A DNA stretch of 64,000 nt. Origin: a bacterium. GTDB taxonomy: Bacteria; CAYTYR01; UBA6262. The position numbers and the translations under genes are program-made. The notes beneath the pieces are model-generated. The model was not told the origin of the DNA, searched no databases, and saw only the letters and a program-made list of their open reading frames with translations. The stretch is from contig JAQTQE010000003.1 of NCBI GenBank assembly GCA_028712365.1, positions 20,173 to 84,172 on the forward strand. Direction: 5' to 3'. Of the stretch, positions 34,134 through 43,068 are shown piece after piece (position 1 is the stretch's first letter; the number at the start of each line of letters is the position of its first letter).

Positions 34134-34412
34134 TTAAGTTCTCTTTTTGCTTAGTCTTTTGAGTTCTTTTATATCGCCTTTTATCAACTCAAGTTTTTTC
34201 AGCTTACTCCATCTTTTAATCTGTCTTTCTCTATCATATGCTTGTAGTTCTTCGTCGAAATGTTCTGTATAGATAATTTTATTAGGCTTGCTGCTCTTTG
34301 TATACCCTCCGCCCTTACCAGAAACATGTTCTTGAAATCTTCTTTTTAAATTCCCAGTAACTCCGGTGTAATACTTTCCATTTCCACATTCAAGAATATA
34401 CAAATACCACAT
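34134..34412 (-). CDS. Small GIY-YIG nuclease-family protein (YhbQ/UPF0213-like)
   Basis: WYLYILECGNGKYYTGVTGNLKRRFQEH…RERQIKRWSKLKKLELI fits the ~95-aa stand-alone GIY-YIG family. Confidence 0.75.
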   Translation of the reverse strand: MWYLYILECGNGKYYTGVTGNLKRRFQEHVSGKGGGYTKSSKPNKIIYTEHFDEELQAYDRERQIKRWSKLKKLELIKGDIKELKRLSKKRT

Positions 34413-34527: not shown

Positions 34528-34848
34528 ACTGCCTGGGTAGGACTCGAACCTACAACCTAGCGGTTACAAGTATCCTCTGAGTTTCTTCAGAGCTTGGACT
34601 ATCTCATTCTCTTGTCCGAATGATCCCGGATTTAGAGAGTGGGCGCTTCCCCTAAATATTTCTAGAGTACTCCCTTGCGGGATAGTCTCTGCGCCTTCTC
34701 CGATTTTCCTTCGGAGCTTGGCTCAGGGTTACCTTACACCTTCCGGCAATCAGGGTTCCCTGAATTCACCCACTTTTTCAACCACGATTTCTCGTGGAAG
34801 CTGCAATTTTAATCACAGCCGCTCGCTCCACCATTGAGCTACCAGGCA
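34528..34848 (-). tRNA. tRNA-Asn(GUU) interrupted in the anticodon loop by a group I intron (exons 34815-34848 and 34528-34565)
   Basis: 5' exon UGCCUGG-UA-GCUC-AAUGGUG-GAGC-G-AGCGG-CUGU; 3' exon UAA-CCGCU-AGGUU-GUAGG-UUCGAGU-CCUAC-CCAGGCA-G. Joined, this gives a cloverleaf with loop CUGUUAA (GUU), U1:A72 and discriminator G73 as in bacterial tRNA-Asn. Confidence 0.7.
34566..34814 (-). ncRNA. Group I intron (249 nt, no ORF) within tRNA-Asn
   Basis: Splice site follows U (…GCUGU|), and the IGS GCAGC pairs with exon GCUGU including a U·G wobble. P2 hairpin CCACGAGAAATCGTGG. R element GCGCAGAGACTA and S element GAGATAGTCC form P7. P9 hairpin CTCTGAAGAAACTCAGAG. Terminal ωG. Confidence 0.65.
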
Positions 34849-34899: not shown

Positions 34900-35841
34900 C
34901 TATACACCTGCTTTATTCGAGCATTCTTCCATCATTTGCAGCCAAGCCCAGTTTTCGTCAATATTCTTCTGGATCTCCGCTACTATACCAGCATTTTCCG
35001 GACGTAACAGATGCTTAAATCTTGTTTGCAGTTTTAAATATTCGGTTATCGGCTTCTTTTCTTTCGGTTTTACATTAATTTTGTATTTACCATCGACTAC
35101 TTCATAGATCGGCCAGAAACATGTCTCTACTGCGAGTCGACCCAAGACCGCTGTGTCTGCCGGATTATAACCCCAGCCCAAACGGCATGGCTGCAAGACA
35201 TTTATAAAAGTAGGCCCATCTGTTTCCAAAGCTTTTTGTACTTTAGTGGTAAGATCGTTCCAGTAGCCAACCGCAGTTTGGCCGACATAAGGAATATTAT
35301 GCGCGACCATGACTTTAGTCAAATCTTTCTTGATCTGTTCCTTCCCTTTTTTCACTTTGCCTACCGGGGAAGTGGAAGCATACGCTCCCAGGGGAGTAGC
35401 TGATGATCTTTGTATACCGGTATTCATATAGGCTTCATTATTATAACAAACATACAGCATCCTGTGCCTGCGTTCCATTGCCCCGGATAATGACTGGAAT
35501 CCTATATCATACGTGCCGCCATCACCGCCGAAGGTAATAAAACGAATATCCTTGTCAACTTTCCCTGTTCTCTTTAAAGCTTTATACGCTGCCTCCATAC
35601 CACTGCAAGAAGCCGCCGCGTTTTCAAACGCACTATGGAACCATGAGGTTTTCCAAGCGCTGAACGGGTAAATGGTGGTAGATACTTCCAGGCAACCGGT
35701 AGCATTAGCTACGACCACTGGCTTATCTGCTGCCGCCATCATTACCTGCCGGGCAATTATTCCCGCGCCGCAACCAGCGCAAAGCCTATGCCCGCCACTG
35801 AGTAATTCCGGCCTTTTAGATAATTCTTTTAGATTTGCCAT
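34900..35841 (-). CDS. porB: 2-Oxoacid (pyruvate/ketoisovalerate):ferredoxin oxidoreductase, β subunit (TPP-binding)
   Basis: CAGCG…GDGG TPP-binding motifs; four-gene γ-δ-α-β operon. Confidence 0.85.
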   Translation of the reverse strand: MANLKELSKRPELLSGGHRLCAGCGAGIIARQVMMAAADKPVVVANATGCLEVSTTIYPFSAWKTSWFHSAFENAAASCSGMEAAYKALKRTGKVDKDIRFITFGGDGGTYDIGFQSLSGAMERRHRMLYVCYNNEAYMNTGIQRSSATPLGAYASTSPVGKVKKGKEQIKKDLTKVMVAHNIPYVGQTAVGYWNDLTTKVQKALETDGPTFINVLQPCRLGWGYNPADTAVLGRLAVETCFWPIYEVVDGKYKINVKPKEKKPITEYLKLQTRFKHLLRPENAGIVAEIQKNIDENWAWLQMMEECSNKAGV

Positions 35842-38086: not shown

Positions 38087-39577
38087 CTAAAACTTAAAAG
38101 CGATCTTCCCCAGCATCATGGGATTATAATAAGTCAAACTAAAAAACCGCCAGGCGGTACTAGCTATCGATCCCACCCATTCACCATTTGCTCCACGAGG
38201 TATTTCCCATTCATATTGATACGTTATGAGCCGTTCTTTATCACCCGGCTTAGCTGAGGTATAAGGCAAGGCCTTTCGCGGGAGATTGACTAATTCAGCT
38301 ATTTTATCCAATTCCTTGGAAATTTTGATAGCTTTCTTTTTGTATTCATCAGCTTTGTTTTTCTTGCCTATACTGGCGCTATATTTAGCCATGATCTTAT
38401 AGGCTAGGACCATTTGCGCGGTTCCTTCTATCCAAATGAACCTTTTACGAGGATTGCCGATCTCCTGCGGAATAGTAAAATCAAATCCTTCTACCAGTTT
38501 TTCTTCGATTGCGTCCTTGACTAATAAATATTTTTCCGCAAAATCCACAAGGCGGAATGGGTCAATGCCCCATTGGGCTAGGCGCGCCGGACCAATAACC
38601 GACAAACTGTTAGAAATCGTATCCAAGGCTTTAGTCGGATCAACTCCAGCCTCATTATAACCGGCATTAAATCCACCGCTATCTTTATTATAGGCTACTT
38701 CCCTAAACCAACGTTCCAATCCAGCCAGTTCCCGGGAAATTATTTTATCCGTAAGTCCCCGTTCCACAAATTCTTGTTTGACTTGCTCTGAACATTGTTT
38801 GCAAATATTTTGTAAGATCAGCAATATGGAATAATAATCAATGCAATTTTCAGTGGAATAAACCTTACTCCAGTCCGGTCCCCAGCCAGAACCCATGGCT
38901 ACCGCGCCTTTTTGGCCATCCGCAAAAGTAAAATGCGGTAAGATGGAAACCCATTTAGCCATGTCTATCACCCAGGTCAAGTAGCTGCCATCTCCCGTAA
39001 TCCTGATATACTGGATCGCGGCCAAAGCTACCCACATATTCGGGCCTACGTGTATCCGGTCCCCGTCAATACCGATCACCAGAGTATTATCTTCGGCTAT
39101 CTGGTCGCTTAAATATGAAGTATAAAGTCCCGGGGCGCCGTTCTTGGTCCAATAAAAATCTTTTTGCAGATTATCCAGGATCATTTTAGCTTTTTCTCGT
39201 TGACCGCAGGCAATATAGATCATCGCCGCGGTAGCAAGATCATAAGTAAAGGCCTGGCGTGCCAGATGTGGTTCATGTCCCAGTTCATAGGTGCCTTTTT
39301 CAGAGATCAAATAATATAAACTGGAATCACTATAGCTTTCCACTAGCCCGGTTACTGGAGACCTCTGGTCATCTAAAAAGAGTAAGGTATCATGTCTTAT
39401 ATCACTGTATTTTTCTTTTAGATCAGAATCCATATATTCTTCATCTGGTTGCGCATATATAGCTTCCTGGGCCTGGATCGGGCCGGTCAGCAACAGAGAA
39501 AACACAATAAGAATTTCTACTAGTAATCTTACCTGTACGAAATCTGTGTAATCTTTTTTTAGAATCCGGGTAATCAT
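38087..39577 (-). CDS. Exported hypothetical protein (possible (α/α)6 glycosidase-like fold)
   Basis: Signal/anchor sequence; no firm family assignment from sequence alone. Confidence 0.35.
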   Translation of the reverse strand: MITRILKKDYTDFVQVRLLVEILIVFSLLLTGPIQAQEAIYAQPDEEYMDSDLKEKYSDIRHDTLLFLDDQRSPVTGLVESYSDSSLYYLISEKGTYELGHEPHLARQAFTYDLATAAMIYIACGQREKAKMILDNLQKDFYWTKNGAPGLYTSYLSDQIAEDNTLVIGIDGDRIHVGPNMWVALAAIQYIRITGDGSYLTWVIDMAKWVSILPHFTFADGQKGAVAMGSGWGPDWSKVYSTENCIDYYSILLILQNICKQCSEQVKQEFVERGLTDKIISRELAGLERWFREVAYNKDSGGFNAGYNEAGVDPTKALDTISNSLSVIGPARLAQWGIDPFRLVDFAEKYLLVKDAIEEKLVEGFDFTIPQEIGNPRKRFIWIEGTAQMVLAYKIMAKYSASIGKKNKADEYKKKAIKISKELDKIAELVNLPRKALPYTSAKPGDKERLITYQYEWEIPRGANGEWVGSIASTAWRFFSLTYYNPMMLGKIAFKF

Positions 39578-40177
39578 TTAAAGCTCTTTTCTTCCTTCTA
39601 AGGCTTTGCTTAAGGTCATTTCATCGGCATATTCCAAGCTGGATCCTATCGGCAGGCCATAGGCAATACGCATAACTTTCACACCCAAAGGCTTGATCAA
39701 ACGGGACAAGTAAAGAGCTGTGGCCTCACCTTCTACATTGGGGTTGGTGGCAATGATCACTTCTTGCACATTATCTTTCTCAATGCGGACAAGCAGGTCT
39801 TTTATTTTCAAGTCCTCCGGGCCAATACCGCCGAGAGGAGAAAGAGCACCTAATAGTACATGATATACGCCTTTATGTCCCCTGGTTTTTTCCAGAGCAA
39901 TGACATCAAATGGTTCTTCCACAACACAGATCTGGGTGTGATCCCGTTCAAGATTTTGGCAAATCGCGCAAGGATCCATATCAGTGACATTGTTGCAGAT
40001 AGAACAATACCGGATATTTTCTTTGGCTAATTTAATCGCCTCAGCCAGATCCACTACTTCTTCTTTGTTGGTTTTGAGGATATAATAAGCTAGCCGTTCG
40101 GCAGTCTTGGGCCCGATACCAGGCAGCCGATGCAAAGCTTCAACTAATTTTTGGAGACTTTGAATCTGGTAAACCAT
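39578..40177 (-). CDS. recR: Recombination protein RecR
   Basis: HhH motif RLPGIGPKTAERLAYY, C4 zinc finger and Toprim domain. Confidence 0.9.
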   Translation of the reverse strand: MVYQIQSLQKLVEALHRLPGIGPKTAERLAYYILKTNKEEVVDLAEAIKLAKENIRYCSICNNVTDMDPCAICQNLERDHTQICVVEEPFDVIALEKTRGHKGVYHVLLGALSPLGGIGPEDLKIKDLLVRIEKDNVQEVIIATNPNVEGEATALYLSRLIKPLGVKVMRIAYGLPIGSSLEYADEMTLSKALEGRKEL

Positions 40178-40195
40178 ATATCCTCTTAGACTACC

Positions 40196-40466
40196 TAGGG
40201 TAGTGAGACTAATATTTCTTTACATTTGCAGGGACTATTTTTTCCTGATTCAAGGCGCGAGGAGTGAGGCGTAGTAGCACTACGTAAACGACGAGTAACA
40301 CCGAAGCAGGGGAAAAGAGCCCCGCCCGTAGGGAAGGATGTATTTGGCCGACTACTGTGTCGCTTCTCCTTGACGTATCTACAGATACGCCAGCGTCGTC
40401 GCTTCTTGTATTCGCCTCAAATCCATTCCTTCAAATGCAAAGAAATATTAGCCTCACTACCCTAAT
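40196..40466. mobile_element. MITE-like non-autonomous element (~267 bp) with ~27-33-bp terminal inverted repeats and a TA target duplication, inserted at the 3' end of ybaB
   Basis: Left TIR TAGGGTAGTGAGACTAATATTTCTTT(ACATTTGCA) and right TIR TGCAAAGAAATATTAGCCTCACTACCCTA. TA is present on both flanks, and the internal sequence is strongly self-complementary. Confidence 0.5.
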
Positions 40467-40759
40467 CCCGGAATGTTCAGTCCCCCGGATATTTTCTTCA
40501 TTTCACTGGCCATTAGATCTTGCGCCTTGGTAATAGCTTCGTTAAAAGCACGTAAAAACACTTTTTCCAATTTATCTGTAGTAGCTCCATTGAGCAGTTC
40601 TGGATTGATCTTTAAAGATTGCACTTCCTGTTTGCCGTTCATAATGATCTGCACGCCCTGACAGTCAATCTGAATAGTCTTGTTCTTCAGTTCTTCTTGC
40701 ACTTTCTTCATTTGGGATTGCATTTCTTTGGCTTGTTTGAGCAGCTTGAACATATCCAC
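40457..40759 (-). CDS. ybaB: Nucleoid-associated protein YbaB/EbfC
   Basis: …MKKVQEEL… coiled coil and a C-terminal GGLNIPGLG tail; classic dnaX-ybaB-recR synteny. The last codon and the stop lie inside the element's TIR. Confidence 0.85.
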   Translation of the reverse strand: MDMFKLLKQAKEMQSQMKKVQEELKNKTIQIDCQGVQIIMNGKQEVQSLKINPELLNGATTDKLEKVFLRAFNEAITKAQDLMASEMKKISGGLNIPGLG

Positions 40760-40764
40760 GCTAT

Positions 40765-42450
40765 TTATTCCCCTTTCCTTACATTATTATTAATTATCTC
40801 GCCTCCAAATATATCCAGTACCCGGCGTACAACCGGATCCCCTTCAACTTGAGCCGTAGCAGCTATAGGAGCCTGGGGACCAGCGTCATTCACTACGGGT
40901 TCCTCAACCTCTTCTTCCACGGTCACTCCTTCTTCACCAGTTAATTCTGCTGGAAGTATATCTATGTTACTGGTTAGGCTACTGATTTTGATCGGTTTTT
41001 GGAAAACTTGACGCGCTAACATTTCTATCACTTTAGCATTTTCTGCACGCTCTATGGTCTGTTTCTGAAATTTATCCTGAGAACTAAATTCCAAGGTCAG
41101 GGTCGTACCGATCAAATCTTTTACTTTAGCTTGTTCCATAGAAGCTGCCAGTCCGGGTTTCTTCTTACGTACCTCTTCAAGCACCATTTGCCACTGTTGC
41201 TTCAATGACGCGTTTTCAGGAGTAGTTTTATACCCGGGAGCCGGTTCAGTATTAACCAATGGGCTTTTTTTTACCGGCGGTTGTTTGCCAGCAGCATTGT
41301 TACCGCCATTGCTGTTTTCTATCGCTTCTAAGCGAGTGACTAATTCCTCTATGGAGATATAAGGACGTGCTATCCTTAATAACCCCATTTCCAGCACAAT
41401 CTTCGGCTGGTCAGTATATTTCATCTCCCGCTCCAGAGTTCCCAGCAAGTCAATATAATGCAATAAAGCTTCTTCTGGTCTTGGGGCAACCTGAGCTTTG
41501 AGATCATCGATCGCTTCCACTGGTAATTTTATCAGTTCTTGGGGTTGAGCGCTTATTTTAGCCATTATTAAATTACGAAAATGCCCGTGTAAATCTTTGG
41601 TCAGTTGGTACAGATCTAATCCTTGCTCTTGGGCTTCATTGATTAAAGCTAATATATCTTTACTTTCCTGCGCAAAAATAGCCCCGCTAAATCTAAGCAA
41701 CAATTCCTGGCTGGTAATCCCTAATATAGAACGGACTGTTTTCCCGTCTATTTGCTGGCCGGTTCCCACAAAAGATATTACCTGGTCAAGAGTACTCTGG
41801 GCATCGCGCATACTGCCTTGGGCAGCCTGGCTAATTATATCCAAGGCTTCATCAGAAACGATTATTTTTTCTTTGGCTGCCAGAGTTTTGAGATGTTTTT
41901 CTATGACTGTCGCAGAAATAAGTTTAAAATTAAACCGCTGGCAACGGGAGAGGATTGTTTCCGGGATCATTTGTGGCTCAGTCGTAGCGAAAATAAAAAT
42001 GACGTGGGAAGGAGGTTCTTCCAGGGTTTTTAGTAAGGCATTAAATCCTGCCTCAGTGACCTGGTGTACTTCGTCTATAATATATATTTTATACCGGGCC
42101 ACCGCCGGGGCAAATTTAACATTTTCACGTAAAGCGCGAATTTCATCAATGCCGCGATTAGAAGCGCCATCAATTTCCAGCACATCTAAAGCATTACCTT
42201 CGGTGATTTCTTTACATAACTGGCAGGTATTATCAGGTTCAACAGTAGGCCCCTTTTGACAGTTCAAGGCTTTAGCAAAGATCCTGGCAGCCGTGGTCTT
42301 GCCTACACCCCGCGGGCCTGAGAAGAGATAAGCATGTCCGATCTTGCCACTGGTAATAGCATTTTGTAAAGCCTGAGCTACTATTTCCTGCCCAATGATC
42401 TCATTGAACAACTGGGGCCTGTATTTTCTAGCTAATACTAAATAATTCAT
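40765..42450 (-). CDS. dnaX: DNA polymerase III subunit γ/τ
   Basis: AAA+ motifs (GPRGVGKTT, DEVH), sensor regions, and a CxxC-type zinc module (CQLCKEI). Confidence 0.9.
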   Translation of the reverse strand: MNYLVLARKYRPQLFNEIIGQEIVAQALQNAITSGKIGHAYLFSGPRGVGKTTAARIFAKALNCQKGPTVEPDNTCQLCKEITEGNALDVLEIDGASNRGIDEIRALRENVKFAPAVARYKIYIIDEVHQVTEAGFNALLKTLEEPPSHVIFIFATTEPQMIPETILSRCQRFNFKLISATVIEKHLKTLAAKEKIIVSDEALDIISQAAQGSMRDAQSTLDQVISFVGTGQQIDGKTVRSILGITSQELLLRFSGAIFAQESKDILALINEAQEQGLDLYQLTKDLHGHFRNLIMAKISAQPQELIKLPVEAIDDLKAQVAPRPEEALLHYIDLLGTLEREMKYTDQPKIVLEMGLLRIARPYISIEELVTRLEAIENSNGGNNAAGKQPPVKKSPLVNTEPAPGYKTTPENASLKQQWQMVLEEVRKKKPGLAASMEQAKVKDLIGTTLTLEFSSQDKFQKQTIERAENAKVIEMLARQVFQKPIKISSLTSNIDILPAELTGEEGVTVEEEVEEPVVNDAGPQAPIAATAQVEGDPVVRRVLDIFGGEIINNNVRKGE

Positions 42451-42453
42451 TTA

Positions 42454-43068
42454 TTATCCTATTATGTGGGTGATTTTATTCAGTAATTCGTATTCTAAAG
42501 GTGTCCGGGCGGAACTTTCCAGTATTCTTTTAATACTCGCCACACTGCCCGGAATAATAGTGGTTTTCGGTTTAGCAGATGACATTTGAGAGTTTATCGT
42601 GTTTATTTCCGATTGCAGCATAGACTTTTGCTCAACTGTCATATTAAGCTGGTCTAATGAAGAATTAAGTACCTGCAATAATTCGTCCAATTCCTTGTAG
42701 CGGCTTTCCCCAATTGTGATCCCCTGGGTTTTTTCATAACTCTCTTGTTGCATTTGCAGATCCATGGTTTGTTTGGCCATAGTATTGCCGCGGGCAGGGA
42801 AATGCGTTGTTGCCTTATCTGGCTCCATTAATGCTGCTTCTACTTCTTCAGCCCCGGCAGGAGTAATGTTAATCAGGTTCCCGGATGACTGATAAGCGAC
42901 CAATTTTTCATTTTCCAGGTAAAAAATAATATCCTGCATTAAAGTAGAACTAAAACCTAATTGCTCCTGTACTTTATTAAAATGAACAGGCTGTCCTTCT
43001 TCGCCTTCAGTCAGTTCATATAACCGGCGCATAAAATTAAATCTTTTTCTAGCTATTTCTTCAGACAT
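42454..43068 (-). CDS. Hypothetical protein (possible wHTH N-terminus), translationally coupled upstream of dnaX
   Basis: ORF only; 4-nt gap to dnaX. Confidence 0.35.
   Translation of the reverse strand: MSEEIARKRFNFMRRLYELTEGEEGQPVHFNKVQEQLGFSSTLMQDIIFYLENEKLVAYQSSGNLINITPAGAEEVEAALMEPDKATTHFPARGNTMAKQTMDLQMQQESYEKTQGITIGESRYKELDELLQVLNSSLDQLNMTVEQKSMLQSEINTINSQMSSAKPKTTIIPGSVASIKRILESSARTPLEYELLNKITHIIG

Follow-up and report, generated by a model that had tools for sequence, protein, structure and literature searches.

The dnaX-ybaB-recR operon studied here lies in a 64,000-nt stretch of bacterial DNA (the window), and its ybaB and recR genes are separated by a gap of 279 nt. In this gap lies a sequence that is bounded by long inverted repeats and overlaps the ybaB stop codon. 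The locus raises the question of what this sequence is, how it came to lie across a stop codon, and how the operon accommodates it. A preliminary description, made from the window alone, had read it as a MITE-like insertion flanked by a TA target duplication. We examined this reading by comparing the window's own locus (WIN) with related loci that we fetched (numbered L001 onward).

The ybaB-recR junction in the window and its relatives

The features of the locus, in window coordinates, are as follows.

40765-42450, minus strand: dnaX, 561 aa, the operon's first gene
40457-40759, minus strand: ybaB/ebfC, 100 aa, PF02575
39578-40177, minus strand: recR, 199 aa, with its start at 40177
40198-40462, minus strand: the element proper, non-coding, 265 bp, reading GGGTAGTGAGGCTAAT...ATTAGTCTCACTACCC in the operon sense
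40428-40464, no strand: ybaB-proximal arm of the terminal inverted repeat, 37 nt, holding the ybaB Gly codon and TAG stop
40196-40232, no strand: recR-proximal arm of the terminal inverted repeat, 37 nt including TA
40233-40427, minus strand: interior with a GC content of about 0.57, compared with about 0.42 in the surroundings, and with local hairpins
40463-40464, no strand: TA, ybaB-side copy of the putative target duplication, part of the last Leu codon TTA (40463-40465, minus strand)
40196-40197, no strand: TA, recR-side copy of the putative 2-bp target duplication, from in-silico excision against the empty alleles L002 and L023
40457-40462, minus strand: GGG TAG, the last sense codon (40460-40462) and stop (40457-40459) of ybaB, from the element end
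40186-40195, minus strand: the displaced original ybaB end, GGT-AGTC-TAA, now non-coding
40181-40185, minus strand: recR Shine-Dalgarno sequence GAGGA, as read from the sequence, a few nt past the helix base

The inverted-repeat element is present as described: its arms are 92% complementary, with 195 nt between them, and its end sequence is GGGTAG[T/C]GAGGCTAAT. The arms are AT-rich and form the longest inverted repeat within 1.5 kb across the whole 64-kb window; a 24-nt arm motif is found at exactly two places there, whereas 100 shuffles gave an expectation of zero. TA stands on both flanks, and the last GGG codon and the TAG stop of ybaB lie inside an arm, both as had been noted. TA is palindromic, and the flanking TAs therefore also lengthen the inverted repeat, so that the case for a duplication rests on the comparison with empty sites rather than on the window. 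Directly upstream of dnaX lies a 204-aa ORF (42454-43068, minus strand) that has no Pfam match and holds the same position in every relative examined.

RecR homologs of the locus form a tight clade at 85-100% identity, beyond which identity drops to 67%; one member is labeled Elusimicrobia. We compared eleven related junctions. The element is present in WIN, L001 and L004, which are 99.8% identical to one another, and in a second lineage, P0007, represented by L011-L013 and L024-L026 from five samples. It is absent from L002, L006, L008, L014, L016-L018, L020, L022 and L023. The ybaB-recR spacer in relatives without the element measures 0-22 nt, and in the more distant ones (L016-L018, L020 and L022) 0-17 nt. 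Individual junctions read as follows.

L002 and L023: clean empty sites, TTA GGT TAA plus 6-7 nt, then ATG
L006 and L017: TTA ACN TAG plus 17 nt
L020: a 10-nt spacer
L016 and L018: TAGATG, with ybaB and recR abutting
L008: TTA GGG TAG CAGCAG ATG
L014: TTA GGC TAG CTACCC TAGGC TAA GAGGAAAC ATG

Because the junction is short in all of the more distant relatives, the short state is ancestral. Removal of the element and one TA from L011 leaves GGGATTA/GGATAACATAAATATG, which is nearly the same as the empty alleles L023 (GGGATTAGGTTAATAATAATATG) and L002. A displaced Gly-stop, GGN TAA, follows directly past the element position: it reads GGA TAA in L011 and GGC TAA in L014, and in the window 4 nt come between its two codons (GGT-AGTC-TAA). 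The empty alleles encode the last Gly-stop as GGT TAA. These comparisons show that the 265-bp sequence is an insertion accompanied by TA duplication, and not ancestral spacer. The target was the TA of the final ybaB leucine codon TTA, which was duplicated; the original Gly-stop was moved 267 nt downstream, its place being taken by the first six bases of the element, GGG TAG. Since GGG TAG stands in exactly for the displaced GGN TAA, the YbaB protein is unchanged. The preliminary description had held that the insertion replaced the native C terminus of YbaB; it did not, as the empty alleles L002 and L023 also end in NIPGLG. Comparison with relatives, which had been proposed as a check, thus bears out the insertion but not the altered protein. 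The gain took place within one genus of uncultured bacteria, whose nearest named relative is labeled Elusimicrobia. Finally, given the 4-nt interruption of the displaced stop in WIN, ybaB and recR would have formed an in-frame fusion before the insertion, and this suggests that the insertion in WIN is not very young.

Two junctions without the element retain pieces of it. In L014, the remnant TA-GGCTAG-CTACCC-TA consists of both TAs and 6 nt of each element end; in L008, only GGGTAG is kept (GGGTAG/CAGCAG). Excision footprints of mariner and Stowaway elements keep both duplications together with short pieces of the element ends (PMC4561436), and by analogy the L014 remnant fits this format, though it is longer than usual. 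A central deletion of a long hairpin would equally yield it. Counting these two remnants, at least four of the seven lineages of the in-group once carried the element. We also considered a different boundary, in which the insertion lies between TAG and CTACCC in a pre-existing palindrome and L014 is an empty site. We think this less likely, because the TA model accounts for the displaced GGN TAA and yields two clean empty alleles that are independent of each other, and because L014 fits a footprint.

The terminal helix and the search for kin

The predicted fold of the 281-nt region on the operon (minus) strand has a free energy of -116.7 kcal/mol (z = -8.05), and none of 200 shuffles was as stable; the opposite strand reaches -105.5 kcal/mol (z = -6.45). 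On the operon strand the arm helix spans 37 positions, with 34 Watson-Crick pairs, 2 G-U pairs and 1 mismatch, and the arm mismatches of WIN become G-U on that strand only. The 195-nt interior, folded without the arms, shows no convincing structure against shuffles (z = -2.0 on the operon strand and -1.35 on the other). Essentially all of the excess fold stability is due to the 37-bp terminal helix, and an independently structured interior was rejected for lack of a significant z-score. The long hairpin expected from the window alone is therefore found in the arms, but the interior, which had been called highly self-complementary, does not contribute to it. Between WIN and L011 the helix shows one compensatory change, U-A to C-G (the chance that 12 random substitutions strike both sides of any one helix pair is 0.066). 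On the operon strand, five other changes are G-U/G-C exchanges and none breaks a pair; these counts are biased, because the two sequences compared also served to derive the consensus structure, and the covariation is thin, with only two sequence variants of the element. The predicted fold thus provides the long double-stranded stem in an operon transcript that is characteristic of Correia- and ERIC-like elements.

How might the operon accommodate such an insert? In E. coli, ybaB and recR overlap and are translationally coupled (PMC9610160), and by analogy a 267-nt insertion would normally break this coupling. We detected no promoter- or terminator-like site in or beside the element; we therefore rejected the possibility that it carries an outward promoter or terminator, and think it probably co-transcribed with dnaX-ybaB-recR. 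In the RNA, the arms would pair as a 37-bp helix with the insert looped out, and the helix would bring the ybaB UAG, located where the 5' arm begins to pair, up against the recR ribosome-binding site. In WIN the recR Shine-Dalgarno sequence follows the helix closely on its 3' side, and the partition function leaves most of it unpaired; in L011 it overlaps the base of the helix. A terminating ribosome would then melt the helix base beside the recR start. Such a juxtaposition would explain how an insertion between normally coupled genes is tolerated. The arm helix is also of a length that, by analogy, would suit an RNase III substrate.

We found no second copy of the element in the 64-kb window, either with the arm motif at 3 mismatches or by sensitive blastn, and none by sensitive blastn in the related loci (24 sources, 269 kb, about ten related genomes). 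An exact 20-mer arm scan of GTDB representatives gave only one chance match, in a coding region of an Izemoplasmatales MAG and without a partner arm, and JGI metagenomes gave only the same locus and the same chance match; both scans needed an exact 20-mer and would miss an L011-type arm (GGGTAGCGAGG, with C at position 7). The JGI sample that holds the window's species (L004) contained no further copy by exact 20-mer. IMG/VR had no match in exact scans with both arm variants and two interior patterns, and plasmid and phage collections had none to the element. An autonomous parent with the same ends and a DDE transposase was likewise not found with the 20-mer end in GTDB representatives, JGI or IMG/VR, and a scan of nine window ORFs gave no transposase. 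In six samples (WIN, L001, L004, L011, L012 and L013) the assembly runs across the element, which disfavors a high-copy repeat.

An rve-type IS, the only one close to the operon in a relative, occupies positions 12100-13550 of L008, between a 496-aa gene and porG. It encodes a 421-aa HTH_28/HTH_23/rve_3 protein, has inverted ends TGTAATCCCAAAATG... and is bounded by a long direct repeat, AGTTTTAGTGTGGTAC. We considered this HTH/rve IS as a partner transposon and rejected it: its ends, TGTAATCCC..., are unrelated to the element.

The element is neither a coding sequence nor a member of a known RNA family. Its ORFs measure only 23-31 aa and have GTG or TTG starts, the two variants show no synonymous excess in any of six frames, and its concatenated six-frame open-frame peptides matched nothing among 5.8 billion predicted proteins; on these three grounds we rejected a coding sequence or gene fragment. 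Rfam 15 (4227 families) gave no match on either strand of positions 39500-41000, even at E<=1 with permissive filters. A scan of the whole window at the gathering score returned nothing at the element, only a group I intron and two tRNAs elsewhere. The intron match (RF00028, 79.9 bits, E 1e-18) is full-length and intergenic at 34575-34824 on the minus strand, between a porB-like TPP gene (34900-35841) and a 92-aa GIY-YIG ORF (34134-34412); it interrupts no tRNA, rRNA or protein gene, lies 5 kb from the element and is unrelated to it. A small GIY-YIG gene also directly follows porB in L008, L016 and L017 but not in L011.

Likeness to known elements

The 35-37-nt terminal inverted repeats and the TA duplication are in the style of IS630/Tc1-mariner-type miniature transposons. 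Properties given for bacterial MITEs (PMC2229807) include inverted ends, a TA duplication, small size, lack of coding capacity and the existence of filled and empty sites, and this element has terminal inverted repeats, a TA duplication relative to the empty site, a small non-coding body and a presence/absence polymorphism; an autonomous parent with a DDE transposase did not emerge from the collections scanned. The MITE-like label thus holds for the anatomy of the insertion, its TA duplication and its filled and empty sites, but no second copy or parent accompanies it in the collections searched. The element is best described as an orphan, apparently site-bound foldback element with no documented membership in a repeat or RNA family.

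The closest systems are the IS630/Tc1-mariner MITEs, such as RUP of Streptococcus pneumoniae, and the eukaryotic Stowaway elements, with which the element has in common inverted repeats, TA ends, a non-coding body and filled and empty sites. The L014 remnant, with both TAs and short element ends, adds to the Stowaway/mariner likeness (PMC4561436; PMC2229807), although it retains 6 + 6 nt where a footprint usually has 2-5 nt. Unlike IS630-type MITEs, the element has neither other copies nor a transposase with matching ends that we could find; bacterial MITEs are typically under 200 bp and AT-rich, whereas this element has 265 bp and a GC-rich interior. It also departs from MITEs in its site: the two species that carry it at one and the same TA have flanks 16% diverged but elements that differ by just 4.4%.

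Correia elements of Neisseria (CREE/NEMIS) are likewise TA-flanked inverted repeats that are co-transcribed with their neighbors, as this element probably is. In their RNA, the terminal repeats pair into a double-stranded stem, which RNase III cuts (PMC2649163, PMC10969869), and the 37-bp helix here would be a comparable substrate. They differ in being about 100-155 bp long and present in hundreds of copies, with IHF sites and promoter-forming ends, whereas we know of one copy here and see no promoter-like site. ERIC/IRU sequences of Enterobacteria and Yersinia are also imperfect palindromes; they lie within operons, in intergenic regions that are transcribed and often close behind the 3' end of a gene, and their RNA hairpins alter the stability of upstream or downstream message in an orientation-dependent manner (PMC2229807). 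ERIC sequences, however, are about 127 bp long, number 30-700 per genome, do not overlap or re-create stop codons and have no sequence similarity to the element.

In its population pattern, and only there, the element resembles homing elements such as group I introns and inteins: these also occupy one fixed site, are patchy among close relatives, have copies far more alike than the host genes, leave remnants after loss and do not harm the host gene product. Unlike them, it lacks splicing and sits after the last sense codons, and we found neither a ribozyme core (by Rfam) nor an endonuclease ORF within it.

Conservation and possible histories

The element is far more conserved between its two carrier lineages than the genes beside it. 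WIN and L011 differ at 12 of 272 element positions (K = 0.045), and 10 of these 12 differences are transitions; the interior differs at 7 of about 194 positions, a divergence of 3.6% against 6.4% in the arms. Across ybaB and recR, the same two loci have 84.4% nucleotide identity and a four-fold-site K of 0.60, with a value of 0.047 for the flanking genes at codon positions 1+2. In a sliding comparison, identity runs at 95-97% over the element, as against 60-88% over the genes, and it collapses again in the 11-18-nt spacer directly after the element, so that the bounds of conservation are those of the helix. With a four-fold K of 0.60, a neutral shared relic would be expected to be about 40% diverged, against the 4.4% seen. 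In addition, each carrier has a closer relative that lacks the element: WIN has 90.8% nucleotide identity to L002 (four-fold K = 0.38, also greater than the K of 0.045 within the element), and L011 has 86.4% identity to L008, which keeps only a remnant. Samples within a lineage are 99.8-100% identical, and their polymorphism is uninformative as a clock. The spacer that follows the element is of two types, TAAGAGGA in WIN and the distant L014, and TAA plus an AT-rich run in L011, L002 and L023; this division conflicts with the tree of the flanks. No recombination tract is visible in those flanks, where WIN is closest to L002 up to the junction on both sides, and in the absence of a tract of altered similarity beside the junction we rejected ordinary homologous recombination as the route of transfer.

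The explanation that we favor, while giving it only about half of our confidence, is that a foldback insertion at the ybaB TA, co-transcribed as a hairpin, has recently spread horizontally into the same site and has repeatedly been lost. The element, or an allele bearing it, would have moved recently between species into this site and would have been lost again through hairpin-promoted deletion or excision. Its patchy distribution, the remnants, the uniform conservation that includes the unpaired interior, the preponderance of transitions, the intact displaced stops and the conflicting spacer types suggest such spread, and a vertically inherited relic is less likely. Against this view, the collections searched hold no second copy, no autonomous partner and no donor pool, and we know of no mechanism that places a TA-targeting element at the same TA in separate lineages. 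The flanks without a recombination tract, the 4-nt break in the displaced stop of WIN and the assemblies that cross the element in six samples also weigh against it. Our preference for recent horizontal arrival over one old, selected insertion is a slight lean between two histories that these sequence data, with just two variants of the element and no polymorphism inside a lineage, cannot separate.

In the second of these histories, which we consider possible though somewhat less probable, a single ancient insertion in the in-group ancestor was domesticated as a cis-acting RNA or DNA element, kept under purifying selection in two lineages and deleted elsewhere; by analogy it might serve as an RNase III processing site or as a keeper of ybaB-recR translational coupling. 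Both carrier lineages do share the site, the orientation and the TA, and the L014 and L008 remnants imply a wider past distribution. The element K of 0.045 matches that of codon positions 1+2 rather than the 0.60 of four-fold sites, and conservation starts and stops exactly at the helix. The pattern of helix changes (one compensatory pair, five G-U/G-C exchanges and none that breaks a pair on the operon strand), the G-U nature of the WIN arm mismatches on that strand only and the stronger fold there (z = -8.05 against -6.45) point the same way. Domestication requires, however, four or five independent losses (L002, L023, L008, L014 and the P0003 contig) in the face of selection of protein strength. 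The empty site of L002 has the spacer type of L023 and L011, not the one beside the element in WIN; the interior, better conserved than the arms (3.6% against 6.4% divergence), nevertheless has no significant structure; and the pair counts carry the bias noted above. There is also no Rfam family for such an RNA and no detectable coding function in the interior.

We regard as unlikely that the element is an ordinary dead MITE, a relic of a dispersed multi-copy family that is neutral save for a possible polarity on recR and has its other copies in parts of the genomes that were not searched. Its terminal inverted repeats, TA flanks, AT-rich arms, small size, lack of ORFs and filled/empty polymorphism are what such a relic would show. 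Copy number can fall to 1 per genome in some families (MITEAba12, 1-22 copies; PMC10969869), and the exact 20-mer scans of GTDB and JGI would have passed over L011-type arms. A neutral relic would nonetheless be about 40% rather than 4.4% diverged at a four-fold K of 0.60, and independent insertions that require only TA would be very unlikely to strike the identical TA. No other copy turned up in 333 kb of the genus (window plus loci) or in the JGI sample of L004, short-read assemblers pass through the element, and its 265 bp and GC-rich interior set it apart from typical bacterial MITEs, AT-rich elements of less than 200 bp (PMC2229807).

The preliminary description had allowed that a lack of other copies, together with a spacer common to relatives, would point to a conserved structured RNA. 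Part of this picture is what we found: there are no other known copies, and the element recurs, with 95.6% identity and at the same site, in a species whose flanks are only 84% identical. The remainder is not, as closer relatives lack the element and no known RNA family matches it. A known structured RNA gene in the operon (SRP, 6S, ribozyme or riboswitch) in place of an insertion is accordingly very improbable: the long terminal helix and length of about 270 nt are reminiscent of large SRP or 6S RNAs, the fold reaches a z-score of -8 and SRP RNA adjoins dnaX in some Firmicutes. Such RNAs are nevertheless effectively refuted, for the Rfam search against 4227 families on both strands at E<=1 gave no match, L002, a close relative with an identical RecR protein, is entirely without the element, and the interior has no significant structure.

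Whether the element exemplifies a new kind of sequence is a more doubtful matter. We put forward, tentatively and expecting rather that it will not hold, that it is either a new single-site non-coding hairpin with homing-like invasion of, and loss from, the ybaB stop, or a domesticated transposon hairpin that bridges ybaB-recR coupling or RNA processing. In the former case, it may be a selfish element that repeatedly enters this site in related species, regenerates the Gly-stop, leaves the host protein untouched and later disappears through hairpin-promoted deletion, while having no ribozyme or endonuclease of its own; in the latter, about as novel, the hairpin may be under protein-like purifying selection. 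Even a mere stray miniature transposon would show an insertion surviving on a stop codon within a conserved, translationally coupled operon, by way of an element end that re-creates the lost codons and arms that fold the insert aside. The paradox is that the element is 13-fold less diverged than neutral sites between species, yet has been lost repeatedly. This would imply either a highly site-specific mobile element without recognizable machinery or a functional, transposon-derived RNA in a replication and repair operon, and both outcomes can be tested in complete genomes and metatranscriptomes of this little-known lineage.

Three further observations concern the sequences around and within the element. 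First, the RecR proteins of WIN (39578-40177) and L002 (1740-2339) are 100% identical, while the genes differ at about 9% of nucleotides, and ybaB plus recR together show 99.7% amino-acid identity at a four-fold K of 0.38; purifying selection on the dnaX-ybaB-recR operon is evidently very strong. Second, the identity between WIN and L002, 89-92% along recR, falls to 64% where the next gene downstream of recR, of 496 aa, begins (window positions about 39400-39577), and there WIN is 86% identical to the distant L014 and 81% to L011. This drop may reflect a recombination tract or a hypervariable N terminus of a conserved protein without Pfam match. Third, two independent Logan assemblies of the P0007 lineage (L025, 1-59, and L026, 1-59) break at the identical base of the element, at the A-run GGAAAAAATAG just inside the recR-side arm. 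The perfect stretch common to both arms is only 26 nt, too short for a k=31 graph break, and the breaks may instead stem from length polymorphism of the A-run or from a drop in coverage at the hairpin.
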